A DNA stretch of 64,000 nucleotides from a phage. The notes beneath the pieces are model-generated. The model did no database searches. It was given only the letters and a program-made list of their open reading frames with translations, and was not told the origin of the DNA. Positions 51,746 through 62,310 of the stretch are shown here, piece after piece. The stretch lies in sequence record PZ386953.1; one strand, 5' to 3'. Each line of letters starts with the position of its first letter. The first letter of the stretch is position 1. A program made the position numbers and the translations under genes.

Positions 51746-51886
51746 ATGAAAGGTAATGCTACTCACCTGGGAAATGTAGTGATTAATGATACAGAAGCGC
51801 GGGAACATAAAGAAGAGTACGAAAAAATGGTGGTTAACCTGGCGGGGGCGGCAGGTGGATTCTATCATAAAAATAATTTAAAATAA
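51746..51886 (+). CDS. small protein (46 aa)
   Basis: ATG after GAAGAGGAGG; below tool size cutoff. Confidence 0.35.
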   Translation: MKGNATHLGNVVINDTEAREHKEEYEKMVVNLAGAAGGFYHKNNLK

Positions 51887-51889
51887 TCG

Positions 51890-51918
51890 TTGACAACAAG
51901 GTTAATCATGGTATTATT
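51890..51918 (+). promoter_or_regulatory. sigma70-like early promoter
   Basis: TTGACA-17 bp-TATTAT. Confidence 0.5.
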
Positions 51919-51967
51919 ACCCTACAAGGTGAACAACACCGCACTAACCAGTAAAGAGGATAAAATC

Positions 51968-52165
51968 ATGAACGCATACGGGATCAAAGTACGTCGCAAC
52001 ACTCGCCAGGTGGTCACCGATCAAATGGTTTGCCAGGTGGACGTAACCATCAACAACGGGCAAGGCCTTTATAAATTCCGTCGCGGTCAGAGCTATACCC
52101 GGCAACAGCTTAATCGTTGCGCCCTGACAAAAGGACAGATCAACCACTGGTTTAATAAAAAATAA
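51968..52165 (+). CDS. small basic early protein (66 aa)
   Basis: ATG after AAGAGGATAAAATC leader; promoter 51890-51918 (tool start 51890 is the -35 TTG). Confidence 0.5.
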   Translation: MNAYGIKVRRNTRQVVTDQMVCQVDVTINNGQGLYKFRRGQSYTRQQLNRCALTKGQINHWFNKK

Positions 52166-52168
52166 GTA

Positions 52169-52197
52169 TTGACATATAGTCCGACACCAAATACACT
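52169..52197 (+). promoter_or_regulatory. sigma70-like early promoter
   Basis: TTGACA-17 bp-TACACT. Confidence 0.45.
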
Positions 52198-52229
52198 AAA
52201 AGCACAAAAGACACTAAGAGGATAAAATC

Positions 52230-52628
52230 ATGAAAACCACCACCTTTAATTTTGATAATGCGGACTTTTCTTTTTCTGATGTCAAGAACTGCCGCCGTGA
52301 TCGTGGATTTTACAAGGCTTATAATCTGGTGGGCCTGGACGATGACAATAATTTGCACGAAGTAGCTGAGATCCGGTATTATGCCGCCGCCAGCGGGAAC
52401 ACTCACTACTGCGTGTTTTGGATTCACGACAACAAGAACAATAAGTACGGTTATACTGGCGGCAAGGCGAGCGGTCACGGTTACGATAAAGCTAACGCAG
52501 CACTTGAGAGCGCATTAAATGCTATGGGGATCACTGCCGACGGCTGGATCTACGAAGAAGAGTTTTTGTCGGCACTTGCTGACCACCTGGGCTATAAAAA
52601 ACACATTGTAACATGCGCCCACGAATAA
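52230..52628 (+). CDS. hypothetical early protein
   Basis: 132 aa; identical AAGAGGATAAAATCATG leader; promoter 52169-52197. Confidence 0.5.
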   Translation: MKTTTFNFDNADFSFSDVKNCRRDRGFYKAYNLVGLDDDNNLHEVAEIRYYAAASGNTHYCVFWIHDNKNNKYGYTGGKASGHGYDKANAALESALNAMGITADGWIYEEEFLSALADHLGYKKHIVTCAHE

Positions 52629-52710
52629 AAATCATTGACACGCTGCAAAATTTAAGTAAACTAGACACAAAAGGCGGGAATGTTTCCCGCCAGCACAAAG
52701 GAAAAAGATC

Positions 52711-53106
52711 ATGAATAAGAACGTACGCCGCATCATGAACGAACTGGCAAACGATGAAAAAATTATTGATATGCATTTGGTCAACATTTGCCGCCGTTGT
52801 GTAACATATAACAACCGCGCCGCAAAAGCGCGTGAGATGAACGCAAAAGGCACCTTAAAGCCCTTTCAGGTGGTTGTAAAATCTATAACTAGCGCAGCAG
52901 GCCAGGCGCAGGACCACAACAACGAGAGCGCTAATATTGATCCGTCTTACGTAATGAAACGGATCCGGACTTGCAAGAATAAAGAGCAGGTATATAACGT
53001 CATAGATTGGCTGGACTCCCTGGGCGATGTGGTTTACAATAGGTTTTCTGCAGCTATCGAGATCCAGCTTGACAGATTGGACGGGAAAGTACTAAAAACT
53101 TATTGA
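52711..53106 (+). CDS. hypothetical early protein
   Basis: 131 aa; promoter 52635-52662, leader hairpin 52673-52691. Confidence 0.5.
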   Translation: MNKNVRRIMNELANDEKIIDMHLVNICRRCVTYNNRAAKAREMNAKGTLKPFQVVVKSITSAAGQAQDHNNESANIDPSYVMKRIRTCKNKEQVYNVIDWLDSLGDVVYNRFSAAIEIQLDRLDGKVLKTY

Positions 53107-53108
53107 GT

Positions 53109-53154
53109 TTATTTTTAGATGGCCTTGACACCAGGGCCATCAATAAAGTAAACT
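53109..53154 (+). promoter_or_regulatory. 46-bp palindromic promoter box, copy 1
   Basis: TTATTTTTAGATGGCCTTGACACCAGGGCCATCAATAAAGTAAACT; 7-bp inverted repeat GATGGCC/GGCCATC brackets the -35 TTGACA. Confidence 0.55.
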
Positions 53155-53186
53155 AACCACAGTTGAGCGGAAAAGGAGGCTTAAAG

Positions 53187-53306
53187 ATGAGCACTACACG
53201 CCAGCACACAAAGGTAACCATCATCGTTTGCATCATTGGGTACATCCTGGCGCAAATGTTGATGGGTAGCGCCAACGGTGTCGCAAAATTTTTCTTAAAC
53301 TTTTAA
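53187..53306 (+). CDS. small hydrophobic peptide (39 aa)
   Basis: ATG 6 nt after AAGGAGG, downstream of promoter box 53109-53154; one hydrophobic helix. Confidence 0.35.
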   Translation: MSTTRQHTKVTIIVCIIGYILAQMLMGSANGVAKFFLNF

Positions 53307-53334
53307 TTGACAAGCTAACTTAAATCGATATAAT
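53307..53334 (+). promoter_or_regulatory. consensus sigma70-like early promoter
   Basis: TTGACA-16 bp-TATAAT. Confidence 0.55.
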
Positions 53335-53385
53335 AAGCACATAAACGGGAAAACTTCCCAGAACACACAAAAGGAGAAAAACACC

Positions 53386-53727
53386 ATGACTACTATGACC
53401 GCCTCAGAAAAAGCTATGCAGATCGCTGAACTGAAAAAACAGATCGCAGACCTTGAGAATAAGATCGATAACTTTGAAATCGACGAGGACAAGTACGACG
53501 AAAACTATGATGAATGGTTAGACGAGATCTACGGCGAAATTATGATCGGAAACATTTCTTTTCTTCCGTCGCGTATCCTCAAGGAGCTAGATCCTATCGC
53601 TTACCGCTGCGGATTTAGCGACTACATCGACAGCCTGGATATTGAGAACGATGAAGAATACCAGGAATTACAGACAGAGTTAGAAGAAGCAAAAGAAGAG
53701 CTTGCGGAGCTGGAAGAAAACGAGTAA
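53386..53727 (+). CDS. highly acidic coiled-coil early protein
   Basis: 113 aa, D/E-rich, ends EELAELEENE; consensus promoter 53307-53334. Confidence 0.5.
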   Translation: MTTMTASEKAMQIAELKKQIADLENKIDNFEIDEDKYDENYDEWLDEIYGEIMIGNISFLPSRILKELDPIAYRCGFSDYIDSLDIENDEEYQELQTELEEAKEELAELEENE

Positions 53728-53729
53728 GC

Positions 53730-53775
53730 TTATTTTTAGATGGCCTTGACACCAGGGCCATCAATAAAGTAAACT
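53730..53775 (+). promoter_or_regulatory. 46-bp palindromic promoter box, copy 2
   Basis: Identical 46-mer to copy 1, immediately after a stop codon. Confidence 0.55.
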
Positions 53776-53816
53776 TTATACTGTTAACACTGAACGAATG
53801 CATAGGAGTTAAAACC

Positions 53817-54062
53817 ATGGCAGCACTAATCACCAAATATTATGCCCCTACCAATACCAAAAGCGCCCGTATCATGGTAAAAGGCTTCGGACGTAAAAAG
53901 GTGTACACCTGGGATTATGCCTTAGACACGGAAGACAACTACACCAACGCAATGACCGATTTTATTAATGAACTAAATAAGCAGATCTTGACAAGTTATA
54001 AAGTGACCGATATTGCTTATATAGGTGAAGGCGGGATCTGTTTTGTAGGCATTGTGAAATAG
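53817..54062 (+). CDS. hypothetical early protein
   Basis: 81 aa; ATAGGAGTTAAAACCATGGC leader repeated at 58407; promoter box upstream. Confidence 0.45.
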   Translation: MAALITKYYAPTNTKSARIMVKGFGRKKVYTWDYALDTEDNYTNAMTDFINELNKQILTSYKVTDIAYIGEGGICFVGIVK

Positions 54063-54110
54063 TTATTTTTTCGGTGGTCCTGGTTGCAGGGCCATCTATA
54101 AAGATAATTT
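54062..54110 (+). promoter_or_regulatory. diverged promoter box, copy 4
   Basis: TTATTTTTTCGGTGGTCCTGGTTGCAGGGCCATCTATAAAG: same layout, degenerate arms. Confidence 0.3.
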
Positions 54111-54136
54111 ATTAACACCATGAAAGGAGAAAGTAC

Positions 54137-54490
54137 ATGATCAGCGGGGCAAGTTTTATTATTGGCGCTATTGCTACGGCTTTAATTGTAAATAAGATCC
54201 AGGATAAAAAGGAAAGAGGAAGTACCGCCCTTGCAGAATATCCATTTTGGGCATTCAACGATAACGAAGATTATATTATAAAGTATAAAAATAAAGAAGG
54301 TGACCAAGTAACACCGCGACCGATCCCGGCTTACAAAATGCAGGAAACACTATACCGCCTGAAGGCGGGGGGCGCAAAAATTGTAGACTTTTGGGGATAC
54401 GACCACACAGATCAGGAAGTTATAAAGCGCCGTATCCGGGCTATTCAGGCCAATATTGAAGTTAGCAAGGGGGGAATATATGAAAATTAA
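54137..54490 (+). CDS. membrane-anchored early protein
   Basis: 117 aa, N-terminal hydrophobic helix; GAAAGGAGA RBS. Confidence 0.45.
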   Translation: MISGASFIIGAIATALIVNKIQDKKERGSTALAEYPFWAFNDNEDYIIKYKNKEGDQVTPRPIPAYKMQETLYRLKAGGAKIVDFWGYDHTDQEVIKRRIRAIQANIEVSKGGIYEN

Positions 54491-54677
54491 TTTCGAGAAA
54501 ATTGTAAAGCGCCCTCATGATTCCGAAGAGCTGCCAGAACGCCGCCAGCGTAACAATAAACTGAATAAGCCAAAAAGGTTTGGGAAGATCTGGCGTAATC
54601 ATTATGATCGTAAATTGCCCGGCCTACTTTTGGAACGTGAACGACAGGCAGAACGATACCGCCATAAAGACAAATAA
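54480..54677 (+). CDS. small basic protein (65 aa)
   Basis: ATG after AAGGGGGG, overlaps upstream stop; terminator follows. Confidence 0.35.
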   Translation: MKINFEKIVKRPHDSEELPERRQRNNKLNKPKRFGKIWRNHYDRKLPGLLLERERQAERYRHKDK

Positions 54678-54685
54678 CAACCAAC

Positions 54686-54715
54686 TCCCCGCCATTGTGC
54701 GGGGCTTTTTATTTC
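54686..54715 (+). terminator. intrinsic terminator
   Basis: CCCCGC-CATTGT-GCGGGG then CTTTTTATTTC. Confidence 0.65.
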
Positions 54716-54836
54716 TATCCTACGAATAGCGCCCCTGGTTGGCCCTGTAAGCGCCAAAAAGGCCCCCACCTATGCAATCGCCCCCCTTTAACCTGAAAAC
54801 ATCGCCCATGGCCGTTTCATGGCGTTAAAAATATCA

Positions 54837-54864
54837 TTGACATCGTCAACAGGTTAGCTATACT
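54837..54864 (+). promoter_or_regulatory. sigma70-like early promoter
   Basis: TTGACA-16 bp-TATACT. Confidence 0.5.
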
Positions 54865-54896
54865 AACCACATCAAAGAGAGAAAGGAGTAAACGCC

Positions 54897-55157
54897 ATGC
54901 GTAAATTAAAAAATTTTGATAAAGTTGATGTTATCCTGAATAATTTTTACTACTGCAACAACAAGGCTATTTGGTGGCGTGATAGTTCCACCGATAAAGT
55001 TAAGGCGCGCTTTCTTCAAGGGCACTGGCAAGGCCGCCCAGTGATTAAAATCATGGGGCAATTGGTAGCTTTCAAAAATTGCCGCCGTGCTGATGATATC
55101 GAAGATATCTTGAACGTTTTACGCTACAACAATTTTAAAAATAGTGTTGACAAGTAA
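54897..55157 (+). CDS. hypothetical early protein
   Basis: 86 aa; promoter 54837-54864; GAAAGGAG RBS. Confidence 0.45.
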   Translation: MRKLKNFDKVDVILNNFYYCNNKAIWWRDSSTDKVKARFLQGHWQGRPVIKIMGQLVAFKNCRRADDIEDILNVLRYNNFKNSVDK

Positions 55158-55174
55158 GATTAAACAAGTATACT
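55147..55174 (+). promoter_or_regulatory. sigma70-like early promoter
   Basis: TTGACA-16 bp-TATACT, overlaps upstream stop codon. Confidence 0.5.
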
Positions 55175-55231
55175 TAATCACATAGGCGGGAAAAATTCCC
55201 GCCACCGCCGAAGAAAATAGGAGAAAATATC

Positions 55232-55855
55232 ATGACTACCGTTAACATTACCGCAGGTTACAATTTATCTTTCGACGTGCTGACCGACGAACAAAAAGAA
55301 AAAGCCGTTGAAATGGTCCGCGAAAGAGAGGAAAACAGCGGTGATAACTTTTTCGCAGAAAGCGTAATTGAATACTATAAAGAATATGTTTTTCCAGAGT
55401 ATGGCCTTGAAGATACCGAAGTACATTGGTCAGGCTTTTGGTGCCAGGGTGACGGCGCGTCAATCAGTGCTGAAAACGTGGATTTAGAAAAATTTTTGCG
55501 TAAAGTAAAGGCCCTGACCAAGTTCCGATCAATTCGTCACTTGTTCGGCACAATGCACGATGGCGAGTTATCAGCCAGTGTTGAACGCGACAAGTACAGC
55601 CATTACAGCCATGAAAACACTGTAAGCGGGTACATTGATACCACTTGGCTAGATCTGACCGCCAAACAAGAAAACAAAGTGGAAGACCTGGAAGAACTGA
55701 TCACCGAGACGGTACGGGAGCTATCCCGCAAGGTTTACGTAGACCTGGAGGAGGCCTATCTAGAACAGTTCACCGCAGAAAACCTGATCGGCCTTATCGA
55801 GGCCAATAACTGGCGGTTTGATGTCGATGAATATGGTGAGATGACTTTTTCATAA
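55232..55855 (+). CDS. acidic early protein
   Basis: 207 aa, net acidic; promoter 55147-55174 and leader hairpin 55185-55203. Confidence 0.5.
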   Translation: MTTVNITAGYNLSFDVLTDEQKEKAVEMVREREENSGDNFFAESVIEYYKEYVFPEYGLEDTEVHWSGFWCQGDGASISAENVDLEKFLRKVKALTKFRSIRHLFGTMHDGELSASVERDKYSHYSHENTVSGYIDTTWLDLTAKQENKVEDLEELITETVRELSRKVYVDLEEAYLEQFTAENLIGLIEANNWRFDVDEYGEMTFS

Positions 55856-55863
55856 ATAAAGTG

Positions 55864-55891
55864 TTGCAATAACCTAAAAACCTGCTATATT
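55864..55891 (+). promoter_or_regulatory. sigma70-like early promoter
   Basis: TTGCAA-16 bp-TATATT. Confidence 0.45.
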
Positions 55892-55945
55892 AAAACTCAA
55901 GGGGGCAAGACGTTTGCCCCAACACAAAACAAAGAGGATAACATC

Positions 55946-56326
55946 ATGAAAAACACTACCAAGGCTATTGACACCGTTATGTTTAACCTGGTTACATTCC
56001 GTGAAGATATGAAAGATCTTCCTCGTGAAACAGTGTGCGACCATATCGAAAACTATCGCAAACTAATCAAAGAGTTGCCTTTAAAACGTGATCAATATGC
56101 GGCTAACGCCATGCTTAATGCCATGATCAAAAAGATGATCCAGTGTGATTTAACCCTGGCCTATGATTATGCAGGCGGTCGTTTTGCAGTATACAATCAG
56201 CCCGTGCCCGGTATGAGCACCACCGAAGAATTGCACGCGCTCAATCTAAAACAAGACGTGTGGGATAGTATGCCTCGCGTGGTGGTATGGGTAGAAAGCG
56301 GAAAGATTTACGGCGATAATTTTTAA
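55946..56326 (+). CDS. hypothetical early protein
   Basis: 126 aa; promoter 55864-55891, leader hairpin, AAAGAGGATAACATCATG. Confidence 0.45.
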   Translation: MKNTTKAIDTVMFNLVTFREDMKDLPRETVCDHIENYRKLIKELPLKRDQYAANAMLNAMIKKMIQCDLTLAYDYAGGRFAVYNQPVPGMSTTEELHALNLKQDVWDSMPRVVVWVESGKIYGDNF

Positions 56327-56390
56327 TCAGGTAGCAGGCGGCATATTTGCCGCCTTATTGTTAATCAGAACTGTAAAAGAGGTACATAGA

Positions 56391-56762
56391 ATGGAATTTA
56401 TTATTTTGGCTGTATTGGTTGCCTTGTTTAACGCCTGGATCGCTGGCAAGATGGGAAGATCCGCCTTTTTATGGTTTATTATATCTATTTTCCTGGGGGT
56501 GGTTGCAACTATTGTATTGGTTATCCTTGCAATTGTTGACAAGGGGAATAATAGAAAGGGTAAAGTATTTTCAGACCTGTACGACGCTCAAACGTTTGTC
56601 AACGCCTATTATAGTGATCTTCCAGTCTCCCTACGCTGCAGCCTGGCACAACAGGTTTTTGATGAGGCTAAAACCAGAGATCAAGCCCATGAGATATGTT
56701 TAACTGAGGCGGATCGCCTATTTGAGAGGAATAGAAAATATGTGGGCCAACCGTTTAAATAA
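56391..56762 (+). CDS. membrane protein
   Basis: ATG after AAAGAGG; two predicted TM helices. Confidence 0.45.
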   Translation: MEFIILAVLVALFNAWIAGKMGRSAFLWFIISIFLGVVATIVLVILAIVDKGNNRKGKVFSDLYDAQTFVNAYYSDLPVSLRCSLAQQVFDEAKTRDQAHEICLTEADRLFERNRKYVGQPFK

Positions 56763-56985
56763 TGCCACGTTAATTAATCCCTTTAGTGAAGATTTGAAGC
56801 CAGCCGCCTGGCGTGACGGATTCAATAACGAACGCTTTATTTTCAGGCCTGATCTTGAGGAATTTTATAACAATGGATCGAACAACAGCGGAGATAATTT
56901 TTCTTGTGGTGTGCGTGGTGATGGTACTCCTGGGGGCCATTGTAAACCACGTCACTACTACCAGAAGGAAAGGGGGAGACGATGA
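56740..56985 (+). CDS. hypothetical protein (frame uncertain)
   Basis: ATG after GAGAGGA; TGA overlaps next start (ATGA); an alternative 41-aa TM peptide ORF exists in another frame (56873..56998). Confidence 0.3.
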   Translation: MWANRLNNATLINPFSEDLKPAAWRDGFNNERFIFRPDLEEFYNNGSNNSGDNFSCGVRGDGTPGGHCKPRHYYQKERGRR

Positions 56986-57101
56986 CAACCAAGGATAAGC
57001 CATGTACCGATAAGGTGCGCCGCGTTATGGTATGGCTTGAGATTATCGCCCTTGAAATATTGCTAGGCGTAGGGATGTACTTTATCGCTGTAAGTAACTA
57101 A
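56982..57101 (+). CDS. small membrane peptide (39 aa)
   Basis: ATG 6 nt after AAGGGGGAG; one TM helix; terminator follows. Confidence 0.35.
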   Translation: MTTKDKPCTDKVRRVMVWLEIIALEILLGVGMYFIAVSN

Positions 57102-57104
57102 GAA

Positions 57105-57134
57105 CGGCCCCCGATCATGGGGGCCTATCTTTTA
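57105..57134 (+). terminator. intrinsic terminator
   Basis: GGCCCCC-GATCAT-GGGGGCC then TATCTTTT. Confidence 0.6.
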
Positions 57135-57240
57135 AAAAAATTTTTCTTCCGTGGTGTTGCAATCCGATCCGGAATGTGGATAATAACAATCAACGGGGAG
57201 CTAATCCCCACCACCACAAAAACCAGAAAGGAGAAACAAA

Positions 57241-57441
57241 ATGAGCAACAATATCCGCGTTATTAACTTCAAAAAAGAAGAAAAAATTGCCGTGCTGATT
57301 GACGGTCAAGAAATCTTCAAGGGCGACTATGAAGATCATCAAACGGCGATTAGTATCACTCGCGTGATTGGTTACCATAATTTCTACCCCCAAGGCGCTG
57401 AGGCAGCAGTTAAACGAATCAAAGAGATTGTAGGCCTGTAA
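57241..57441 (+). CDS. hypothetical early protein
   Basis: 66 aa; promoter 57157-57186; GAAAGGAGA RBS. Confidence 0.45.
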   Translation: MSNNIRVINFKKEEKIAVLIDGQEIFKGDYEDHQTAISITRVIGYHNFYPQGAEAAVKRIKEIVGL

Positions 57442-57444
57442 AAT

Positions 57445-57490
57445 TTATTTTTAGATGGCCTTGACTTCAGGGCCATCAATAAAGTAAATT
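57445..57490 (+). promoter_or_regulatory. 46-bp palindromic promoter box, copy 3
   Basis: Same box with 3 substitutions (TTGACT, TAAATT). Confidence 0.5.
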
Positions 57491-57532
57491 TAAACCCTGT
57501 TAAAATAATCAGTGCAAAAAGGAGTAATGGTC

Positions 57533-57832
57533 ATGTTTATACCCGCCAATAATCTTTATTTCTTTGATGGTCAGATCGTAGACGGTGTGGAAGTGGAGAT
57601 CACTGGGTGCCCTGGTGGTCAGGCTATGACTTTTCGGAATAATGCCTTTGATGATTCTCGTATCGTTATGAGAATGGAAGTTACAAAGCTGGACGACAAG
57701 AAAACACTCATTGACTATTCCGTGAAAGATCATCCAGACCACCACATGATCTATGGTGATTTGTGCATTGTTGACCGTGACAAGGTGAGCGGCATTGTGA
57801 TCGCTATTGTGAACGATGTTTTCTCAAACTAA
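57533..57832 (+). CDS. hypothetical early protein
   Basis: ATG 8 nt after AAGGAG (tool GTG start is 21 nt upstream); promoter box 57445-57490. Confidence 0.45.
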   Translation: MFIPANNLYFFDGQIVDGVEVEITGCPGGQAMTFRNNAFDDSRIVMRMEVTKLDDKKTLIDYSVKDHPDHHMIYGDLCIVDRDKVSGIVIAIVNDVFSN

Positions 57833-57849
57833 TTTCAGCAGGTGATTTT

Positions 57850-58200
57850 ATGAAAGTTAAATTATATTACCTCAATGAGCTTAACCCGCTTGCACAAGTC
57901 CACGCCCTGGATAACGCTGTTTATTGTGAAAAGTCTATATACAGTGTTGAGCTTAACGCTATGCGTGAACGCCTTAAAGGCGGTTACTTTGACATCCATG
58001 CTGCAATCAACGGCCTGAATATAGAATTTATCCGCTTACGTAACAGCCGCCAGAATCTGGCAAGAATGGAACAAGATCCGGCCCACCTTCGTAAGCTGGT
58101 TATTGAAAATCATCTGATGTTTAATGCCGATGGTGATTATTACCATTTTCACCGTAAACGCTGGTACCGTAGCGGCAATATAGGAAAGAATGCAAAATAA
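57850..58200 (+). CDS. hypothetical early protein
   Basis: 116 aa; terminator follows. Confidence 0.45.
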   Translation: MKVKLYYLNELNPLAQVHALDNAVYCEKSIYSVELNAMRERLKGGYFDIHAAINGLNIEFIRLRNSRQNLARMEQDPAHLRKLVIENHLMFNADGDYYHFHRKRWYRSGNIGKNAK

Positions 58201-58236
58201 GGCCCCTGGCAGGGCCTGCAGCGATATAATCACATA

Positions 58237-58270
58237 AAGGCTATGCGGTTGCATAGCCTTTATTATTTTG
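58237..58270 (+). terminator. intrinsic terminator
   Basis: AGGCTATGC-GGTT-GCATAGCCT then TTATTATTTT. Confidence 0.65.
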
Positions 58271-58406
58271 GCGTTACAGCGGCCCCCAAGGCGCTTAAAA
58301 AATTTTTAAAGAAGTACTTGCATCAAGTCCTACAATATGGATAATAAAGGGTGTCGGGGGGCGGTGAGGCCTCCAATCATTAACCGGATAGATAGGAGTT
58401 AAAACC

Positions 58407-58691
58407 ATGGCTATTGTTACCGTTGGCGATGTAGTAGAAATGGAAGCCAAATACTTAAAAGCTGGTATGCATATCATACGGAATGATCAAGAATTGTTAT
58501 TAACCATGGTTGAATATAATCCCGGTCAGGATTATCCAAGCATTGACTACTTTTTCCAGTATGTTGATGAAGAATTAAAAGAGGATGAGGCTTATCAGGG
58601 TGAATTTTGTAATTTCTTTTGCTCTGATGAGGTTGTAAAAGTTATCTATCAACCTGGCGTACCTTTCCCGCTGCACGCTATCAATAAATAA
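58407..58691 (+). CDS. hypothetical early protein
   Basis: 94 aa; promoter-like 58318-58346; repeated leader ATAGGAGTTAAAACCATGGC. Confidence 0.45.
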   Translation: MAIVTVGDVVEMEAKYLKAGMHIIRNDQELLLTMVEYNPGQDYPSIDYFFQYVDEELKEDEAYQGEFCNFFCSDEVVKVIYQPGVPFPLHAINK

Positions 58692-58747
58692 ACCTGGCGG
58701 GGCCGAAAAGGCCCCCCAATTATGAAAATAAAGAGAGGCAAATCATC

Positions 58748-58981
58748 ATGATGGAACAAATTAAACGCGCCGAGGCTATTAATGGCAACGTGATCTATTT
58801 TGTCAGCAAAAACGAAAAAGGCGTACCCTATGCGGCGGTAATAGTACAGCCTGACGGCGATTATTGGTGCACTGTGTACGGCGCTTATTCTTTTGGGCGT
58901 CCGGTGCATGATAAAATTTTGAAAGTAGCGAACCCTACCGGGAAAAATATTACAGCAGAAAAATTTTTTGAAAATAGTTGA
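58748..58981 (+). CDS. hypothetical early protein
   Basis: 77-aa ORF after hairpin 58699-58715. Confidence 0.4.
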   Translation: MMEQIKRAEAINGNVIYFVSKNEKGVPYAAVIVQPDGDYWCTVYGAYSFGRPVHDKILKVANPTGKNITAEKFFENS

Positions 58982-59005
58982 CATGACTATATAAAACTGT
59001 AGTAT
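58978..59005 (+). promoter_or_regulatory. sigma70-like early promoter
   Basis: TTGACA-16 bp-TAGTAT. Confidence 0.45.
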
Positions 59006-59057
59006 ATAAATCAAAGGGGGCAACAAGCCCCACCAACCACAAAGAGGATAAAAAATC

Positions 59058-59237
59058 ATGGCTATTATTGCAAAGACCGAGATCGTAGGCTTAGATTCTA
59101 TTCTCCTCGCATATGAGGAAGCTATAGAAATGTATGTGGTTTCCTATGGTGAGTATATCCGTGAATATGAATCTATTGATCTAGCTTTTGAATGTTATAT
59201 TCGCCAGGTTAATAAAGCGTACGATGATTATCGTTAA
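59058..59237 (+). CDS. small protein (59 aa)
   Basis: ATG after AAAGAGGATAAAAAATC; promoter 58978-59005; below tool cutoff. Confidence 0.4.
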   Translation: MAIIAKTEIVGLDSILLAYEEAIEMYVVSYGEYIREYESIDLAFECYIRQVNKAYDDYR

Positions 59238-59328
59238 AATAGTTTGACAACAAACAACCATCTAACAAAGCATAATACATAAGGTGGTAGAATGATCCGC
59301 CACCCGGAACAAAGAAGAGGTAAACACC

Positions 59329-59574
59329 ATGAAAAGCAATAAAGGTTATAACGGTTACAAAAACAAAACTCATTGGAATGTAAGCCTTTGGATTAATAAC
59401 GATGAGTCATTGTACCGGTTGGCCCAAGGATTTATTAACGCTAATGCTAATCGTAATGATGCGGCGCGGGATATGATGCTTTTTCTGGAGCTAACCGGAC
59501 AAGATAAGACCCCGGACGGCTTCAAGTACAGCACTACGGCGATCCGTGCCGCGATGGTTGGAATGAAACACTAA
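59329..59574 (+). CDS. hypothetical early protein
   Basis: 81 aa; AAGAAGAGG RBS. Confidence 0.45.
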   Translation: MKSNKGYNGYKNKTHWNVSLWINNDESLYRLAQGFINANANRNDAARDMMLFLELTGQDKTPDGFKYSTTAIRAAMVGMKH

Positions 59575-59651
59575 AAGCACATAGCCGCCTTACCCTGGGG
59601 CTGTAGTAGCGGCCCCATGAATAAGGTTACTAACAGAAGAGAATAAACACT

Positions 59652-59756
59652 ATGAAACAGAAATTAATCGATGCAGTGATCTTGGTTATTGCCCTGGGTA
59701 TTGGCCTGATTGCAACCATGTCTAATATGATCTTGTCTTCCAACGGTATCGGGTGA
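59652..59756 (+). CDS. small membrane peptide (34 aa)
   Basis: Single hydrophobic helix; weak RBS; below tool cutoff. Confidence 0.25.
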   Translation: MKQKLIDAVILVIALGIGLIATMSNMILSSNGIG

Positions 59757-59765
59757 GGTTGGCAA

Positions 59766-59981
59766 ATGATCACTAACAAAACAGGCAAAACAGAATTTTT
59801 ACGCAACTTACAGATCGGCAAGCCTGAGATCTGGTACTGCACTAAAACACCGCGTGACGAAATGAAAGACTTCACCGCCACGCTGCAACGGGTAAAGATA
59901 TCTATCACGCAGAAAAAGGCCTTACTAGTGGTGGAAGGGGAGATCCCCCAAACCGTTGTTATAGTTGAGCGTACAGCATAG
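59766..59981 (+). CDS. hypothetical protein
   Basis: 71-aa ORF. Confidence 0.4.
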   Translation: MITNKTGKTEFLRNLQIGKPEIWYCTKTPRDEMKDFTATLQRVKISITQKKALLVVEGEIPQTVVIVERTA

Positions 59982-60072
59982 TTTAATTTATACCGATACC
60001 CGAAAATTAACCAACAAAGCATAAACAGGCGGTTACCGCCGCCTTAAACGTAGCAGAAAGAGGATAGACACA

Positions 60073-60363
60073 ATGAAAAAGATGATCGCAGTGGTTGCCC
60101 TGGTTGTTGGACTTAGTGCGCCTGCAATGGCTAATGAGCTGGCAAAAGAGGTTAATCTAACGGATATTCATGCCGTCAATCGAATCGGGGTTACTTATCG
60201 CTTATGCCTTGCCACTAAAACTTTTAATGACGGTACAACAGAGTACTACGGGTTTGAGGGTATCCGGTGCGGTGAGCTTGCTCGCGACCTTAAGGAAGAT
60301 CCAGACCTGGAAGATCTGCCCATCACCGTAAACGGTAAAGCTTACGTAAACCGCCAACAATAA
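60073..60363 (+). CDS. secreted/periplasmic small protein
   Basis: Signal peptide MKKMIAVVALVVGLSAPAMA; AAAGAGGAT leader. Confidence 0.45.
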   Translation: MKKMIAVVALVVGLSAPAMANELAKEVNLTDIHAVNRIGVTYRLCLATKTFNDGTTEYYGFEGIRCGELARDLKEDPDLEDLPITVNGKAYVNRQQ

Positions 60364-60379
60364 GTAAGGGAGATGTAAA

Positions 60380-60571
60380 ATGAATACTGAACAAGTTAGA
60401 AAGGTATTGGCGGTACTGCGTTATCATAATCATAGAAAGGTCATAGACGATCCTGATTATGTAGATTCAAGCCTGGAAGAAGACACGCTACAAGCTATCA
60501 GCCATATGCAAGAATTGCTTAAGCGCATGACAGAGAAAAACCGACCGGACTACATAGGGGGTAAAATATGA
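60380..60571 (+). CDS. hypothetical protein
   Basis: 63 aa; AAGGGAG RBS. Confidence 0.4.
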   Translation: MNTEQVRKVLAVLRYHNHRKVIDDPDYVDSSLEEDTLQAISHMQELLKRMTEKNRPDYIGGKI

Positions 60572-60879
60572 TCGCTATTACGCCAACCGTTTTAGATTGG
60601 TATCGGCAACGCATAGCTCCTCCGCTGGCTATCTTCAAAGATGCGGAATCAAAACAACGCCGGATCTCAATACATGAGATCATCAACCTTAACGCTGGAG
60701 GCACACCATACCGCCCAGGGCCTGGCCGTGAGATGGACAATACGTTAGCGATCCTGAAGATACGCCGTAAACGGTCCTCCCTTACGCTGGACTCCTTACA
60801 CACAATGCAGTCTCCGTTCCAGGTGACCGGGAAACGGATCGCCAGGTCCTGGACAAAGGCCAATGATCGGACCGTATAA
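60568..60879 (+). CDS. hypothetical basic protein
   Basis: 103 aa; ATGA overlap. Confidence 0.4.
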   Translation: MIAITPTVLDWYRQRIAPPLAIFKDAESKQRRISIHEIINLNAGGTPYRPGPGREMDNTLAILKIRRKRSSLTLDSLHTMQSPFQVTGKRIARSWTKANDRTV

Positions 60880-60967
60880 ATAAAAAGTGCTTTGGTACTG
60901 ATTTTGGGGGTTGACTTGTTCGGCCCCTTTTGCTATTCTTATTAAACGGGCGGCACTTGGGAACAGG

Positions 60968-60990
60968 GGGAGACAATCACCGGGCCTGCC
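60968..60990 (-). repeat. 23-bp GC-rich element, copy C (inverted)
   Basis: GGGAGACAATCACCGGGCCTGCC is the exact reverse complement of copy A. Confidence 0.75.
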
Positions 60991-61098
60991 TGTCATATAA
61001 GAACTATAAAAACCGTTGACATCTGCCAGGTGGTGGGGTAACATTTATCTTGAAGGGGCAAAAGTGCCCACACAACAACCAGAAGAGAGGAAAACATT

Positions 61099-61371
61099 AT
61101 GTCAAGCTGGATTAATCAAGAAGTCGAATCACGTTTTAATGCTATTTGGGATCTCATCGAAAAAGAGGACGGAACATCAAGCCCTTATCTCAATAATCTT
61201 GAATTCCATTTCGTGGAAGCGATGAACGCAGAACATGATCACGAAGGTGGTGCGGATGAGTTCGCTAAAGGGTATGGCTTCAACAATGCCAACGAAATGA
61301 TCGAGGCGGTTGTACTCCAGGCTGAGGAAGATTATCAATTAAAAACGCTTGAATTCTGCCGCCGTAAGTAA
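61099..61371 (+). CDS. acidic early protein
   Basis: 90 aa, D/E-rich; promoter 61005-61034 and leader hairpin. Confidence 0.45.
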   Translation: MSSWINQEVESRFNAIWDLIEKEDGTSSPYLNNLEFHFVEAMNAEHDHEGGADEFAKGYGFNNANEMIEAVVLQAEEDYQLKTLEFCRRK

Positions 61372-61433
61372 TAAGATAATGACACGGGCCAAAAGGCCCA
61401 CTAAACAAAAACCACATAAAGAGGAAAAACATC

Positions 61434-61697
61434 ATGAAACGTCTTGACCAGCTCAAACTAGTTCAATATATGGCTTATCGTGTTCTGGAAGTCCAGAAAG
61501 GTAGCAAAAAAGAGGTTTGCGAGAAAGCTTATAAGATCTTTACCCGCAAAAAAGATGACTGGATGCTACGCCAGACCAAAAAGGCTGACATCTTGGGGTA
61601 CCTGGAAGAAGAGATCCGACTTGAAGAACAAGAAGAGATCCGCCGTAGTGAGGCAGATTATCAGGCAGCTTGGGAAAACTGGATGAGCAACAAATAA
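61434..61697 (+). CDS. hypothetical early protein
   Basis: 87 aa; AAAGAGGAAAAACATCATG leader. Confidence 0.45.
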   Translation: MKRLDQLKLVQYMAYRVLEVQKGSKKEVCEKAYKIFTRKKDDWMLRQTKKADILGYLEEEIRLEEQEEIRRSEADYQAAWENWMSNK

Positions 61698-61763
61698 TAC
61701 AACAAGTTACATGGTCAGGGGCAATAAAGCCCCTTGATCACATAAAAATTATGCTATCCTTGG

Positions 61764-61792
61764 TTGACAGGGATCGGCAGTTTTGCTATATT
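61764..61792 (+). promoter_or_regulatory. sigma70-like early promoter
   Basis: TTGACA-17 bp-TATATT. Confidence 0.5.
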
Positions 61793-61842
61793 CTTTTTTG
61801 AAGGGAAGTTGTAAGAAAATTAACTGAGAGGTAAAAAACACC

Positions 61843-62262
61843 ATGAACATTAAATCTGATAATCCGGCATATAGCTTTGATAACGCTTTTTGTCACGGTC
61901 CGGCGGCGAAAGGATTCGAAATCGATGGTAAACTAATTATTGTCAATGTTGACGGGGAAGAGGTTGCAGTATATCCGGTGGCGGACGTTAAAAGCCGTCT
62001 ACAATGCCGCATGGATGTTACCGCCTATCAGCTTGATCCGGTCCGCGTAGTTGCCCTGGTCCTGGAGGAAGAGATCAAAGCCATGCATCATAGCAACAAG
62101 TTTATCGGTGACGCGCAAGATAATATGAAGGTATGCCGCCATAAAGTTAACGAAGTTCTTAAAGAATACGGCTTCAAAGATCTGATGATCAAGCGTGATG
62201 AAAAATTCCGCTATCGTAATGACCTGGCAAATCGAATCTATCAAATATACGAATCATTATAA
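61843..62262 (+). CDS. hypothetical early protein
   Basis: 139 aa; promoter 61764-61792; terminator follows. Confidence 0.5.
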   Translation: MNIKSDNPAYSFDNAFCHGPAAKGFEIDGKLIIVNVDGEEVAVYPVADVKSRLQCRMDVTAYQLDPVRVVALVLEEEIKAMHHSNKFIGDAQDNMKVCRHKVNEVLKEYGFKDLMIKRDEKFRYRNDLANRIYQIYESL

Positions 62263-62280
62263 TTTCTTAACTGAACTATC

Positions 62281-62310
62281 AGGGGCTTTAAAAGGCCCCT
62301 TTCTTTTTGT
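62281..62310 (+). terminator. intrinsic terminator
   Basis: AGGGGC...GCCCCT hairpin then TTCTTTTTG, ends the early array. Confidence 0.65.

Follow-up and report, generated by a model that had tools for sequence, protein, structure and literature searches.

The closest described relatives of the elements reported here are the PeSL of T4-type phages, which were presented as mobile regulatory cassettes and whose definition and behaviour are given in two earlier papers (PMC2839356, PMC4122927). For the phage rV5, promoters P164 to P195 and terminators t164 to t184 were listed in 2013 (PMC3606486, Table S4), and these promoters and their density have been known since then. I analysed a 64,000-nucleotide stretch of phage DNA (PZ386953.1, hereafter the window). 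The rV5 sites coincide with sites between positions 51890 and 62310. Along its whole length, this region shares 97.9% identity with that of Escherichia phage JLBYU08 (Vequintavirus murica, rV5-like) and 93–95% with those of Murica, LL12, rV5_ev, and FFH2. It is an ORFan-rich early-gene array of an rV5-like coliphage, the counterpart of the early region described in the rV5 paper (PMC3606486) and the Certrevirus paper (PMC7344957). Its recurrent promoter module is most similar in kind to PeSL, but the hairpin of the rV5-group module lies 3′ of the start site and lacks a U tract. This hairpin at a fixed position apparently has not been published before.

The array consists of 29 genes, g1 to g29 (51968..62262, + strand; 34–207 amino acids), recognised from the ORF list, SD sequences and start contexts, with annotated orthologues in JLBYU08 and Murica and a rough correspondence to rV5 genes 196 to 164. 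All features below are on the + strand unless stated otherwise. The coding share is 78%, and the intergenic sequences total 2288 nt. Among all 29 products, curated Pfam cutoffs were reached only by g8 (54480-54677; Phage_1_1, T7 gp1.1) and g21 (59329-59574; DUF7249), and all 20 products scanned against PHROGs fell into families of unknown function. The largest acidic protein gave a confident structure model, for which no known fold was found. A sequence-only reading of this region had counted about 30 small genes over 10 kb and pointed out acidic proteins, small membrane peptides, and a secreted protein. These agree with the products: six have a pI of 4.1–4.6 (g5, g10, g16, g18, g20, and g27), g4, g14, and g22 are hydrophobic peptides of 34–39 amino acids, and the N-terminus of g24 (MKKMIAVVALVVGLSAPAMA) resembles a signal peptide. 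There are also very basic small products (g8, pI 10.6; g1, pI 10.7; g26, pI 11.2). To the host-takeover or anti-defence role suggested in the sequence-only reading, the Pfam and PHROGs matches lend no weight either way.

Promoters were scored by the number of matches, out of 12, to TTGACA-16/18-TATAAT, with a threshold of at least 10 and dinucleotide shuffles as the null. Twelve sites were found on the + strand, 11 of them intergenic, and none on the − strand, while the shuffles gave 1.7 ± 1.4 (maximum 6). The exact TTGACA hexamer occurs 17 times on the + strand and four times on the − strand (expected 2.5). With three further sites scoring 9/12 (55864, 57157, and 57461), the sigma70-type promoters total about 15, and TTGCAT-16-GATAAT at 58318 is an additional weak promoter-like site. 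Four promoters have no hairpin: P1 (51890..51917; TTGACA-16-TATTAT, with an extended −10 and an A-rich upstream sequence), which serves g1; P2 (52169..52197, rV5 P195; TTGACA-17-TACACT), whose leader is fully unstructured; P9 (54837..54864, rV5 P186; TTGACA-16-TATACT); and P29 (61764..61792, rV5 P164; TTGACA-17-TATATT). Six canonical terminators with T runs occur in the array region. Intrinsic terminators follow g8 (54687..54704, CCCCGCC...GGCGGGG plus CTTTTTATTT, annotated in Murica), g11 (56336..56355, rV5 t184), and g14 (57106..57125, rV5 t181), and another closes the array (62281..62300, rV5 t164). Two terminator-like hairpins follow g17 (58200..58263), the second of which (58234-58263) is rV5 t177, and one follows g26 (60906..60928), where it is the right-hand breakpoint of g26 deletions.

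The recurrent unit, here called class A, is a module of about 100 bp: an A-rich tract upstream of a near-consensus sigma70 promoter, then a G+C stem-loop, a spacer, an SD sequence, and the start codon. A G+C stem-loop of 5–8 bp starts 11–13 nt past the −10 hexamer at eight promoters (p about 1e-10). By strict criteria, such hairpins lie 11–12 nt after the −10 at six of the 15 promoters (binomial tail 9e-11 against the window-wide hairpin rate); relaxed criteria bring in two more, the hairpin at 53347-53359 (offset 13) and an imperfect hairpin past 58318. In the first 51 kb of the window, about 25 promoter-like matches have no hairpin at that offset. Behind seven of the hairpins, the next 8 nt are free of T (A30 C22 G4; p about 1e-7 to 1e-6), which bears out the CA-rich leader of the sequence-only reading. 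A strong SD stands between the A/C spacer and the start codon. The conserved start context was also confirmed, with C at −1 of the ATG in 16 of the 29 genes (p = 3e-5), ATCATG in eight and ACCATG in five, so that the module start reads A-(T/C)-C-ATG. The predicted RNA folds range from −8.6 to −15.3 kcal/mol, and the leader 3′ of the hairpin is unpaired. A Y-R step 7–8 positions past the −10 predicts an unpaired 5′ tail of 3–4 nt.

The individual modules are as follows. In P3 (52635..52710; promoter 52635-52662, rV5 P194), the hairpin GGCGGGAATGTTTCCCGCC (52673-52691, offset 11; fold −14.6 kcal/mol, z −3.4) is followed by AGCACAAAGGAAAAAGATC-ATG. P5 (53307..53385, rV5 P192) has a perfect TTGACA-16-TATAAT, the hairpin GGGAAAACTTCCC (53347-53359), and a CA-rich leader. 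The P10 promoter (55147-55174, rV5 P185; module 55147..55231) overlaps the g9 stop codon, and its hairpin GGCGGGAAAAATTCCCGCC (55185-55203, offset 11) folds at −15.3 kcal/mol (z −3.35; CM score 43 bits). P11 (55864..55945; TTGCAA-16-TATATT with TG) has the hairpin GGGGCAAGACGTTTGCCCC (55902-55920, offset 11; −12.5 kcal/mol, z −3.3) and the leader AACACAAAACAAAGAGGATAACATC-ATG. Thus, the hairpins of P3, P10, and P11 lie exactly where the sequence-only reading had placed them. P15 (57157..57240; TTGCAA-16-GATAAT) carries GGGGAGCTAATCCCC (57195-57209, offset 11), whose stem is kept in the orthologues while the loop varies. The weak TTGCAT-16-GATAAT site is accompanied by an imperfect G+C hairpin in the g18 leader (58318..58406). 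P20 (58978..59057, rV5 P174; TTGACA-16-TAGTAT) and P27 (61016..61098, rV5 P168; TTGACA-17-TAACAT) carry GGGGCAACAAGCCCC (59017-59031) and GGGCAAAAGTGCCC (61056-61069), both at offset 12. P21 (59244..59328) is degenerate (TTGACA-21-CATAAT; hairpin 59283-59301); its spacer is 17 nt in phage AlexBoehm, and a T·G pair of its hairpin is C-G in nom and I29.

Four further hairpins lie just after stop codons with no recognisable promoter: GGCGGGGCC-GAAAA-GGCCCCCC, 5 nt past the g18 stop and upstream of g19 (58697..58718); one upstream of g22 (59598..59617); AGGCGGTTACCGCCGCCT upstream of g24 (60027..60044); and GGGCCAAAAGGCCC upstream of g28, with a CA-rich leader behind it (61386..61399). Since the strong P1, P2, P9, and P29 lack a hairpin and these four hairpins lack a recognisable promoter, promoters do not depend on the hairpin, and its use is not confined to sites next to a promoter. 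The dense sigma70-like promoters of the sequence-only reading were confirmed, while its statement that most genes form individual units goes too far: 15 of the 29 genes have their own promoter-like site, but only eight show the promoter-plus-hairpin form, and three of the promoters belong to a second repeat, class B.

Class B has four copies of a two-part hairpin of about 20 bp around the −35 box. Copy 1, upstream of g4 (53106..53154), has TTGACA in the loop (promoter-like site TTGACA-18-TAAACT at 53125-53154) and folds at −25.1 kcal/mol (z −7.8). Copy 2 lies upstream of g6 (53727..53775), and copy 4 (57442..57490; TTGACT-18-TAAATT) upstream of g16. A diverged copy (71%) upstream of g7 (54061..54109) has no good −35/−10, and both of its stems are preserved through compensatory and wobble changes.

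Is the class A hairpin conserved in other phages? The same module, with compensatory stem changes, was found in phi92-like, phAPEC8-like, Certrevirus, and 121Q-like phages. In five phages (four genera, and one phage without a genus assignment), 32 of 88 promoter-like sites have a strict hairpin. All 32 lie 9–15 nt after the −10 (sd 1.6), and their distance to the ATG is 17–29 nt (sd 3.0); the anchor of the hairpin is the promoter, not the start codon. Among Vequintavirus phages, the promoter spacer, the loop, and the leader have taken up substitutions, and the stems are intact. When 34 modules were aligned with a covariance model, 94.9% of cells were paired versus 86.9% in shuffles, and both-sided changes occur at four pairs, one of which is GC in 21 modules and CG in 10. 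The covariation score was 0.166 versus 0.072, reached by none of 500 shuffles, although it tallies sequences rather than independent events, and modules spread by duplication and exchange. KKE7M, nieznany, CR9, KP13-26, and 121Q have different stems at the matching position (GGCGGGAA, GGCGGCA, GGGGC, GGGGAGAA, and GTGGGGAA). Thus, what persists inside the genus, and also among three unrelated large-coliphage lineages, is pairing rather than sequence. Related phages have retained the hairpins in their homologous cassettes, which supports the small-gene array under host-type promoters with a conserved leader hairpin that was proposed from the sequence.

Where genes were lost, inserted, or exchanged between subfamilies, the breakpoints lie at the repeated modules. 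In 241Ecol014PP, the crossover that removed g6 lies within two copies of class B (53727..53775 being one partner), and the hybrid element is directly readable. In nom, I29, and HeinrichReichert, g21 was lost through a crossover within the common SD/ATG context (overlap 22–32 nt). MiataMamis has a 587-nt insertion within the P9 spacer, and JEP1 and 241Ecol014PP share a breakpoint at 58983, the end of the P20 −35. The segment 53306-53779, which begins at the P5 −35 and runs to the following module's −10, has 93% identity with the phi92-like KKE7M between unrelated flanks, and JEP1 11237-11534 matches KKE7M 9762-10058 from promoter to promoter (91%). Breakpoints at gene edges are in part expected from selection against disrupted genes. 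The modules are reused and swapped among several groups of large coliphages. Being non-random, promoter-anchored, pairing-conserved, and located at breakpoints, they are the rV5-group counterpart of PeSL. The link between modules and breakpoints had been overlooked in the sequence-only reading, whose promoter density was already in print.

What does the class A hairpin do? The modules are probably portable expression units whose hairpin acts in the early mRNA; this is the best explanation as a whole. It is unlikely that the hairpins instead attenuate or terminate read-through, a role already put forward and tested for PeSL stem-loops, so that each module halts upstream polymerases and restarts transcription, giving each ORFan its own level. 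In one earlier study, lacZ expression fell to a similar extent with a PeSL stem-loop as with rrnB T1 (PMC2839356), the P3 and P10 hairpins are annotated as terminators in phage Alma, as are two class B copies in Murica (54061..54109 among them), and the promoterless hairpins at 58697, 59598, 60027, and 61386 sit just past stop codons. But a hairpin 11–13 nt 3′ of its own −10 would also stop the transcripts of its own module, the T-free stretch after it is the opposite of an intrinsic terminator, and the region has separate canonical terminators. With its place 3′ of the start site and no U tract, the hairpin seems unlikely to terminate, and I infer that it is not an intrinsic terminator; this is a judgement from sequence, because PeSL stem-loops without obvious U tracts reduced downstream expression in vivo. 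It is quite doubtful that the palindrome or RNA hairpin is a site for a trans-acting factor, either a phage repressor that silences all early promoters at once or an N/boxB-like or other RNA-binding protein affecting RNA polymerase or translation. Roadblock operators and RNA sites of the nut type lie at about +5 to +25, as these hairpins do; several loops are rich in A or read GAAAA (58706-58710); g8, g1, and g26 are small, very basic candidates; and the same stem top, GGGAA-N3-5-TTCCC, was seen in Vequintavirus, phi92-like, phAPEC8-like, Klebsiella, and 121Q-like phages. That recurrence is, however, explicable by the demonstrated exchange of whole modules, and no boxA-like motif was noticed by eye. 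Moreover, one genome has several unrelated stems (GGCGGGAA, GGGGCAA, GGGGA, GGGGC, and GGGCA) with loops of 3–5 nt that differ in sequence, which is at odds both with a rigid dimeric operator and with an RNA binder specific for the loop. Finally, breakpoints and hybrid elements fall in the repeats, as they would if the hairpin had no role in expression and the repeat were selected only as homologous or structure-prone DNA for recombination, a selfish or evolvability element. This is very improbable: the crossovers lie at the −35, the spacer, the class B 3′ arm, and the SD/ATG context but none in class A hairpins, the offset from the −10 is fixed, and the stems stay paired despite divergence, which lowers homology and would not be expected to persist in a recombination substrate.

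For the class B repeat there are two readings, a PeSL-style promoter and an intercistronic processing site of the RNase III type. It is possible, though I lean against it, that the repeat is no promoter and instead serves RNA processing or stability in the manner of the T7 early-operon R sites; g4, g6, g7-g8, and g16-g17 would then be expressed by read-through from P3, P5, and P15, giving tidy operons each closed by a real terminator. The fold combines a 10-bp upper stem, an internal loop, and a lower A-U stem of 7–10 bp, for a total of about 20 bp (−21 to −25 kcal/mol, z −5 to −8). The copy at 54061 has lost the −35/−10 match and retained both stems, g8 is a T7 gp1.1 homologue, and the class B sites are missing from the rV5 promoter list (PMC3606486). 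Against this, TTGAC(A/T)-18-TAAA(C/T)T is preserved in three copies, and in the KKE7M copy a class A-type hairpin comes 11 nt past TAAATT, the canonical promoter geometry. The two roles are not mutually exclusive.

As for class A as a portable expression unit, a newly acquired small gene could be expressed at once by the host RNA polymerase. From promoter geometry, the hairpin would start at about +4 to +6 of the transcript, and my best guess is that it may act in the RNA as a 5′-proximal stabiliser or insulator. Only about 3–4 unpaired 5′ nucleotides would precede it in transcripts from the module's own promoter, and such a short tail may hinder RppH and 5′-end-dependent attack by RNase E. 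The hairpin may also keep the unstructured ribosome-binding site clear of upstream pairing, and in read-through transcripts the same hairpin could, after processing, serve as a protective 3′ end. The engineered mRNA stability of the sequence-only reading is thus a reasonable mechanism, but it depends on the true 5′ ends, and neither a transcriptome nor mapped 5′ ends for these phage groups were found in the literature. With an unpaired tail of at least 4 nt, RppH and RNase E could still engage and protection would not be assured; once the 5′ end is engaged, simple "orthogonal" stem-loops are readily bypassed by RNase E during scanning (PMC9943677). In 47 distinct hairpins, an unbiased count of internal mismatches gave four G·T/T·G and seven A·C/C·A, and thus no strand-asymmetry signal for the + strand RNA as the selected form; the G·U excess in the module alignment is confined to one terminal column. 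RNase E is stimulated by T4 Srd, and such stimulation would give phage mRNAs a reason for protection. An ORF elsewhere in the window (23824-24867, − strand) matches the PHROGs "Srd anti-sigma factor" and "decoy of host sigma70", and rV5 gp11 was named an Srd homologue in the rV5 paper (PMC3606486).

The cassette architecture that the sequence-only reading described at 51890-62310 is real, and it is more regular and more widespread than that reading could see. The stretch belongs to the early/ORFan region of Vequintavirus (rV5-like) phages. It matches 301 phage records, 75 of which cover at least 80% of the query. The best match is Escherichia phage JLBYU08 (97.9% over the full length of 10.4 kb), followed by Murica, LL12, isim, rV5_ev168, and FFH2 with 93-95% identity. 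JLBYU08 and Murica are classified as Vequintavirus murica, i.e., rV5-like myoviruses of about 136 kb, and the gene order of the array agrees with that of Murica, rV5_ev168, nom, and I29. Twenty-three records that carry the name 'Campylobacter phage' and list C. jejuni as the host share 91-97% identity with this region of an E. coli phage; their host labels look doubtful.

The array consists of 29 small genes (g1 to g29, 51968-62262, 34-207 aa), all of which lie on the + strand and have a recognisable SD. The coding density is 78%, leaving 22% as intergenic DNA. The start of g1 in the JLBYU08 record falls inside a clear promoter, while the Murica record uses the same ATG as this analysis. When all 29 products were searched against Pfam, the curated cutoff was reached only by g8 (T7 gp1.1, E = 2.6e-11) and g21 (DUF7249, E = 7e-13), and each of the 20 products scanned against PHROGs fell into a family of unknown function. 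PDB sequence searches gave no match for g2, g10, and g29. Homologues of the g10 product (207 aa, pI 4.4) occur in rV5-like genomes as well as on contigs, about 350 kb long, that resemble jumbo phages; the confident model of g10 (pLDDT 87.4) has no significant match among solved structures. Taken together, the searches speak neither for nor against a host-takeover or anti-defence array. The g5 product (53386-53727, 113 aa) is very acidic (pI 4.1) and coiled-coil-like, with no Pfam match above the cutoff. The acidic proteins and small membrane peptides expected from the sequence are present as six proteins of pI 4.1-4.6 and hydrophobic peptides of 34-39 aa, and the claimed secreted protein may be g24, whose N terminus is predicted to be signal-peptide-like. 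In the whole window, Rfam gave no matches at gathering scores and ARAGORN found no tRNA genes.

Are the promoters as dense as they seem? In a lenient scan of both strands (9/12 matches, 50-64 kb), 45 promoter-like sites were found against 33 +/- 5 in shuffles, together with 27 terminator-like sites against 13 +/- 4. At 10/12 the signal is sharp and one-sided: all 12 sites lie on the + strand, while dinucleotide shuffles gave 1.7 +/- 1.4 (maximum 6), so that the claimed density of host-type promoters stands. The exact TTGACA hexamer occurs 17 times on the + strand and four times on the - strand (about 2.5 expected). Eleven of the 12 sites at this level are intergenic, and the 9/12 sites at 55864, 57157, and 57461 as well as a weak one at 58318 also lie directly upstream of genes. 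At P1-P3, P9, P10, P20, and P27 (promoters are named after the gene served), the form is TTGACA-16/17-TAnnnT with an AAAA-rich sequence 5′ of it. The spacer of the g21 promoter (59244-59276, TTGACA...CATAAT) is 21 nt here and 17 nt in AlexBoehm via a 4-nt deletion, a natural indel that is likely to turn the promoter on or off.

The promoters themselves are already published, and the module as a whole represents no new principle. In the rV5 genome paper (Kropinski et al. 2013, PMC3606486, Table S4), 33 sigma70 promoters and 20 terminators were predicted. From that table, rV5 P195 corresponds to window position 52169, P194 to 52635, P192 to 53307, P186 to 54837, P185 to 55147, P174 to 58978, P168 to 61016, and P164 to 61764, and the rV5 terminators t164, t177, t181, and t184 coincide with terminators found here. 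For Certrevirus, Buttimer et al. (2020, PMC7344957) reported an early promoter AAAA(N3)TGTTGAC(N17-19)TATAAT that is found mostly beside short hypothetical genes. Both papers have the same promoters, likewise clustered among short hypothetical genes, whereas the promoter-proximal hairpin, the A/C leader, the class B repeat, and the gene-shuffling role are absent from them. In the rV5 text, 'stem-loop' refers to terminator symbols only (PMC3606486), and the words 'hairpin' and 'stem-loop' have no occurrences in the Certrevirus paper (PMC7344957). A literature search for a transcriptome or a 5′-end map of rV5-, phi92-, or phAPEC8-like phages found none.

The hairpin coordinates quoted by the sequence-only reading are correct, and their position relative to the promoter is nearly fixed. 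In what is called here the class A module, a sigma70-type promoter is followed by a G+C stem-loop, an A/C spacer, an SD, and the start codon. The stem starts 11-12 nt after the -10 box at six promoters (52635, 55147, 55864, 57157, 58978, and 61016) and 13 nt after it at 53307, while an imperfect hairpin follows 58318. The 64-kb window has no more than 67 start positions of strict G+C hairpins, and yet six of 15 promoters have one in the 5-nt slot (binomial tail 9e-11). None of about 25 promoter-like matches at 1-51 kb of the window has a hairpin at that offset, and the hairpin modules are confined to 51.9-62.3 kb. A pyrimidine-purine step lies at positions 7-8 after the -10 box in seven of eight modules, from which 3-4 unpaired nucleotides before the stem are predicted.

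The leader is equally regular. In the eight nucleotides 3′ of seven hairpins (56 positions), the composition is A30 C22 G4 T0 (p about 1e-7 to 1e-6). In 16 of 29 genes, the base before the ATG is C (p = 3e-5), with ATCATG occurring eight times and ACCATG five times; the CA-rich leader and the ATCATG start context noticed earlier are thus found again. The leader RNA is predicted to fold into a single hairpin with the remainder unpaired (-8.6 to -15.3 kcal/mol), and the direct-repeat families D3, D5, D6, D8, and D10 span the leader, the SD, and the ATG. On the other hand, the idea that most genes stand in individual units holds only in part. About half of the genes have their own promoter-like site, while only eight have both promoter and hairpin. 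Four hairpins have no recognisable promoter (58697, 59598, 60027, and 61386), and four strong promoters have no hairpin (P1, P2, P9, and P29).

Several known identities were considered for the class A hairpins and rejected. By their sequence, they are probably not rho-independent terminators, because no T occurs in the 56 nucleotides after the stems and the six true terminators are separate from them. Nor are they antisense terminators, since a T-rich tail on the - strand occurs at the P3 hairpin only and there are no - strand promoters. A lambda-type nut site (boxA plus boxB) was rejected because the loops differ in length and sequence among modules (TGT, AAA, GACGT, GCTAA, AACAA, and AAAG) and no shared boxA-like motif was seen by eye.

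Is the module maintained in other phages? In eight other Vequintavirus genomes, substitutions lie in the promoter spacers, loops, and leaders, and the stems are intact. A T·G pair of the P21 hairpin reads C-G in nom and I29, and the P3 module of MiataMamis has a different hairpin at the same place. Outside Vequintavirus, the regularity of the class A module is higher still. The phi92-like phage KKE7M (Justusliebigvirus) and the phAPEC8-like phage nieznany (Phapecoctavirus) both belong to Stephanstirmvirinae, and about two thirds of their early promoters have the form AAAA..TTGACA-16-TAnnnT-gtatcacatag-GGCGGGAAatggTTTCCCGCC-...aaagaga..atcATG. The module is also present in Cronobacter phage CR9 (Certrevirus), in Klebsiella phage KP13-26, and in the 349-kb jumbo phage 121Q (Asteriusvirus), where the stems are, for example, GGGGAGAA/TTCTCCCC and GTGGGGAA/TTCCCCAC. 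A stringent scan of IMG/VR with a promoter plus GCGGGAA-N3-TTCCCGC found six contigs of 15-153 kb (five of them 97-153 kb), a pattern too narrow to measure the spread. Across five of these phages, a strict hairpin accompanies 32 of 88 promoter-like sites, always 9-15 nt after the -10 box (sd 1.6), while the distance from the hairpin to the ATG is 17-29 nt (sd 3.0). The smaller spread on the promoter side shows that the hairpin is tied to the promoter and not to the ribosome-binding site.

A covariance model was built from 15 modules and used to align 34. The share of paired cells in this alignment is 94.9%; shuffles reach 86.9% and slid partners 38-70%. Four stem pairs change on both sides (one reads GC in 21 modules and CG in 10). 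The covariation score is 0.166 against 0.072, a value reached by none of 500 shuffles; the alignment is fitted to the model, sequences and not events are counted, and the modules have spread by duplication, so the score is to be read within these limits. The G·U pairs in the model-fitted alignment were considered as evidence for a + strand RNA and discarded, since among 47 distinct hairpins internal G·T/T·G pairs number four and A·C/C·A mismatches seven, which gives no strand signal. Modules of the phi92/phAPEC8 type (55 bits with model R1) were found in replacement or extra cassettes of JEP1 (L009, 10900-12650) and MiataMamis (L005, 5219-5804 and 10220-10832), which indicates continuing import from Stephanstirmvirinae-like phages.

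A second repeat, class B, is 49 nt long and intergenic, with copies at 53106, 53727, and 57442 and a 71% copy at 54061. Its RNA is predicted to form an upper stem of 10 bp and an A-U lower stem of 7-10 bp, separated by an internal loop (-21 to -25 kcal/mol, z -5 to -8). TTGACA lies in the loop region and TAAACT 18 nt further on. In the diverged copy at 54061, both stems are kept by compensatory and wobble changes and the promoter match is lost. The Murica record labels two of the copies as terminators, an identity rejected here for either strand because the sequence is T-rich before and A-rich after the hairpin on both strands. A class B covariance model was run on three Vequintavirus genomes (the window, MiataMamis, and JEP1) and found four copies in each; it found one copy in KKE7M and none in nieznany, CR9, or KP13-26. 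By an exact-pattern search, the three conserved copies are present in most of the fetched Vequintavirus loci. As far as these searches reach, class B is genus-specific apart from one exchanged copy. In that KKE7M copy, a class A-type hairpin lies 11 nt beyond TAAATT, in the geometry of a canonical promoter.

From this geometry and the fold, class B may act as a promoter, as an intercistronic site of the RNase III type, or as the two together. RNase III processing sites lie between the early genes of T7. Class B resembles them in that it lies between small early genes and forms a two-part hairpin, about 20 bp long and interrupted by an internal loop; it differs from them in that it also carries a -35/-10 match and occurs outside Vequintavirus only once, in the cassette shared with KKE7M. 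An RNase III-type site in place of a promoter is a possibility that I would hold with some reserve; the structure speaks for it and the -35/-10 match against it, and the two roles do not exclude each other.

The modules are also the places where genes come and go. The window was compared with 12 Vequintavirus genomes and the breakpoints were read directly, revealing many indels among close relatives in the array. The g6 gene is absent in 241Ecol014PP, and the junction there is a hybrid of the class B copies at 53727 and 54061 with the crossover in GGGCCATC(A/T)ATAAAG. The g21 gene is absent in nom, I29, and HeinrichReichert, with an overlap of 22-32 nt in the common AGAAGAG..AAAC..ATGAAA context. 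Such hybrid elements and overlaps suggest homologous exchange between repeats. In MiataMamis, 587 nt containing three small ORFs are inserted within the P9 spacer. JEP1 and 241Ecol014PP part from the window exactly at the end of the P20 -35 box, and at P21 MiataMamis diverges just after the -35 box and Alma just after the -10 box. Where g26 is deleted, the loss begins at its start codon and ends with the terminator at 60928. Among about 17 distinct break ends, only one lies deep within a gene, in a stretch of which just 22% is intergenic, a placement to which selection against broken genes contributes.

Exchange also reaches across subfamilies. The segment from the first base of the P5 -35 box through g5 to the -10 box of the next module (53306-53779) is 93% identical to KKE7M, while its flanks are unrelated. 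Similarly, JEP1 11237-11534 is 91% identical to KKE7M 9762-10058 from promoter to promoter. Read from such alignments, whole expression units move between subfamilies. The sharing of the complete g5 unit makes g5 a candidate for a strongly selected accessory function. Taken as a whole, the breakpoints and the shared segments argue strongly that the modules serve both as portable expression units and as crossover points.

The nearest known system is the PeSL (promoter-early stem-loop), a mobile regulatory cassette of T4-type phages. PeSLs are intergenic repeats of about 100 bp in which an AT-rich tract and a sigma70 promoter are combined with a G+C stem-loop, an SD, and an ATG; they cluster among ORFans and mediate indels and replacements, and their stem-loop lowered downstream lacZ expression (Arbiol et al. 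2010, PMC2839356; Comeau et al. 2014, PMC4122927). The modules found here likewise are repeated intergenic units of about 100 bp, in which an AT-rich upstream tract and a consensus sigma70 promoter precede the G+C stem-loop, the SD, and the start codon. The early region that holds them is also hyperplastic and rich in ORFans, and copies of the modules recombine so that single small genes are deleted, inserted, or replaced, for which the evidence here is comparative. In contrast, the host phages belong, by their taxonomy lines, to Vequintavirinae, Stephanstirmvirinae, and Asteriusvirus and are not T4-type. Furthermore, the PeSL stem-loop lies between the -35 and -10 boxes or over the -10 box, while the class A stem-loop lies downstream of the -10 box, predicted to be within its own transcript. 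With the T-free tract that follows it, the class A stem-loop is unlikely to be a terminator. The closer PeSL analogue is class B, in which the hairpin surrounds the -35 box; of the two, only class B has a hairpin that overlaps the promoter.

The class A hairpin also resembles ompA-type 5′ stem-loops, in that a short stable hairpin lies a few nucleotides from the predicted 5′ end and is accompanied by an unstructured leader and a strong ribosome-binding site. Emory, Bouvet and Belasco reportedly described, in 1992, the 5′-terminal stabilising stem-loop of the E. coli ompA 5′ UTR, synthetic stabilising 5′ hairpins are said to have come from Carrier and Keasling, and the specificity of RppH is reportedly the subject of work by Foley et al. 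in 2015. In the ompA type, no more than about 2-4 unpaired nt separate the stem-loop from the 5′ end of the mRNA. Judged by the ompA work and the specificity of RppH, the tail of 3-4 nt predicted here would be at the reported upper limit for protection, at which 5′-end-dependent decay is still slowed by such a structure.

What could the hairpin do? The overall explanation that I favour, with moderate confidence, combines the cassette and shuffling role with a stabiliser or insulator role. That the hairpin in itself is an mRNA stabiliser or insulator is a more tentative proposal, drawn from its position and its surroundings. The hairpin would act in the RNA, where the predicted start leaves 3-4 unpaired nucleotides before the stem, and a stem-loop at the 5′ end would slow 5′-end-dependent decay. 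The A/C-only spacer would keep the ribosome-binding site unpaired irrespective of the upstream sequence, and in read-through transcripts the hairpin may shield a processed 3′ end. T4 Srd stimulates RNase E; if the same holds during infection by these phages, protection of phage mRNAs would be useful. It was also noted that a 347-aa ORF on the - strand at a divergent promoter region (23824-24867) matches the PHROG 'HNH endonuclease' (2e-112) and, in addition, 'decoy of host sigma70' (6e-15) and 'Srd anti-sigma factor' (5e-10). According to the rV5 authors, rV5 gp11 is an Srd homologue (PMC3606486); it is not equated here with this ORF. RNase E readily bypasses simple stem-loops once engaged (PMC9943677), and this bypass, like the strong promoters that have no hairpin, is counted against the stabiliser role.

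The other readings fare less well. PeSL-type attenuation, in which the hairpins would dampen read-through transcription, is unlikely, because the hairpin is predicted to lie inside the module's own transcript and the tail after the stem is free of T. A binding site for a trans-acting factor I regard as quite improbable in view of the varied stems and loops within one genome. The same low credence goes to a bolder version, in which the hairpin would be the cis handle of a dedicated trans-acting system in at least three unrelated lineages (rV5-like, phi92/phAPEC8-like, and 121Q-like). A phage protein or a hijacked host protein would then bind the 5′ hairpin and switch, protect, or shut off the early ORFan regulon, and the hairpin would mark newly gained cassettes as 'self' early genes. 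The least probable of all is that the hairpin is a passenger serving recombination only, since the pairing is kept while the sequence diverges.

If the module works as proposed, namely as a shuffled cassette whose hairpin stabilises or insulates, it would explain how dozens of rapidly exchanged ORFans can be expressed in large lytic coliphages. Each gene would bring along its own promoter of the host type, a structured 5′ end, and a ribosome-binding site that is insulated, with the repeated modules acting as crossover points. The PeSL idea would then be widened beyond the T4-type phages and would gain a second geometry with the stem-loop within the transcript. Annotations would also be corrected by it, as several records start genes inside a promoter or call these hairpins terminators. 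Moreover, the modules would define where a cassette begins and ends when early ORFans are cloned and screened for activity in host takeover or anti-defence, and they would supply compact natural parts for expression design, consisting of a strong promoter, a 5′ hairpin, and an unstructured leader.

The DNA flanking the array has features of its own. In the non-coding DNA just upstream, two Fur-box-like sites (51332-51350 and 51468-51486) match GATAATGATAATCATTATC at 15/19 and 16/19 positions. They are the only sites in the 64-kb window reaching 15/19, with 0.29 expected per shuffle, and they are kept in every fetched Vequintavirus locus whose upstream part is long enough to include them. Clusters of this kind also flank the early arrays of KKE7M (four sites, L006 1523-1617), KP13-26 (three sites), nieznany, and CR9. 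No strong sigma70 promoter overlapping the sites was seen by eye, and no literature on Fur boxes in these phages was found. A 29-nt inverted repeat (51360-51388 and 60968-60996, 93% complementary, core GGCAGGCCCGGTGATTGTCTCCC) has its arms 9.6 kb apart, bracketing most of the array, with a third diverged copy near 51497-51540. Each left-hand copy lies just downstream of a Fur-box-like site. RNA folds of this G+C-rich element beside the Fur boxes gave no significant structure, and spurious ORFs are annotated across its copies in JLBYU08.

Further upstream, three non-coding direct repeats of about 47 nt (TTTCCAAGTACTCGATCTGTTTTTCGTTT..., families D2 and D4) occupy 51032-51217. A 46-aa ORF at 51746-51886, just upstream of 51890, has a strong SD (GAAGAGGAGG) and is annotated in nom; it is probably a real gene, for which no clear promoter was seen. 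At the other end, 62300-64000 is AT-rich (GC 0.39), lacks convincing genes, contains numerous short repeats (CATGTAAAC, TAATAGTTGCC, and GTTAATTGT), and probably corresponds to the 'non-coding' box of the rV5 map (PMC3606486). Some records, such as isim, have their genome start about 2 kb beyond it, and the region may be a packaging, terminal, or origin region.
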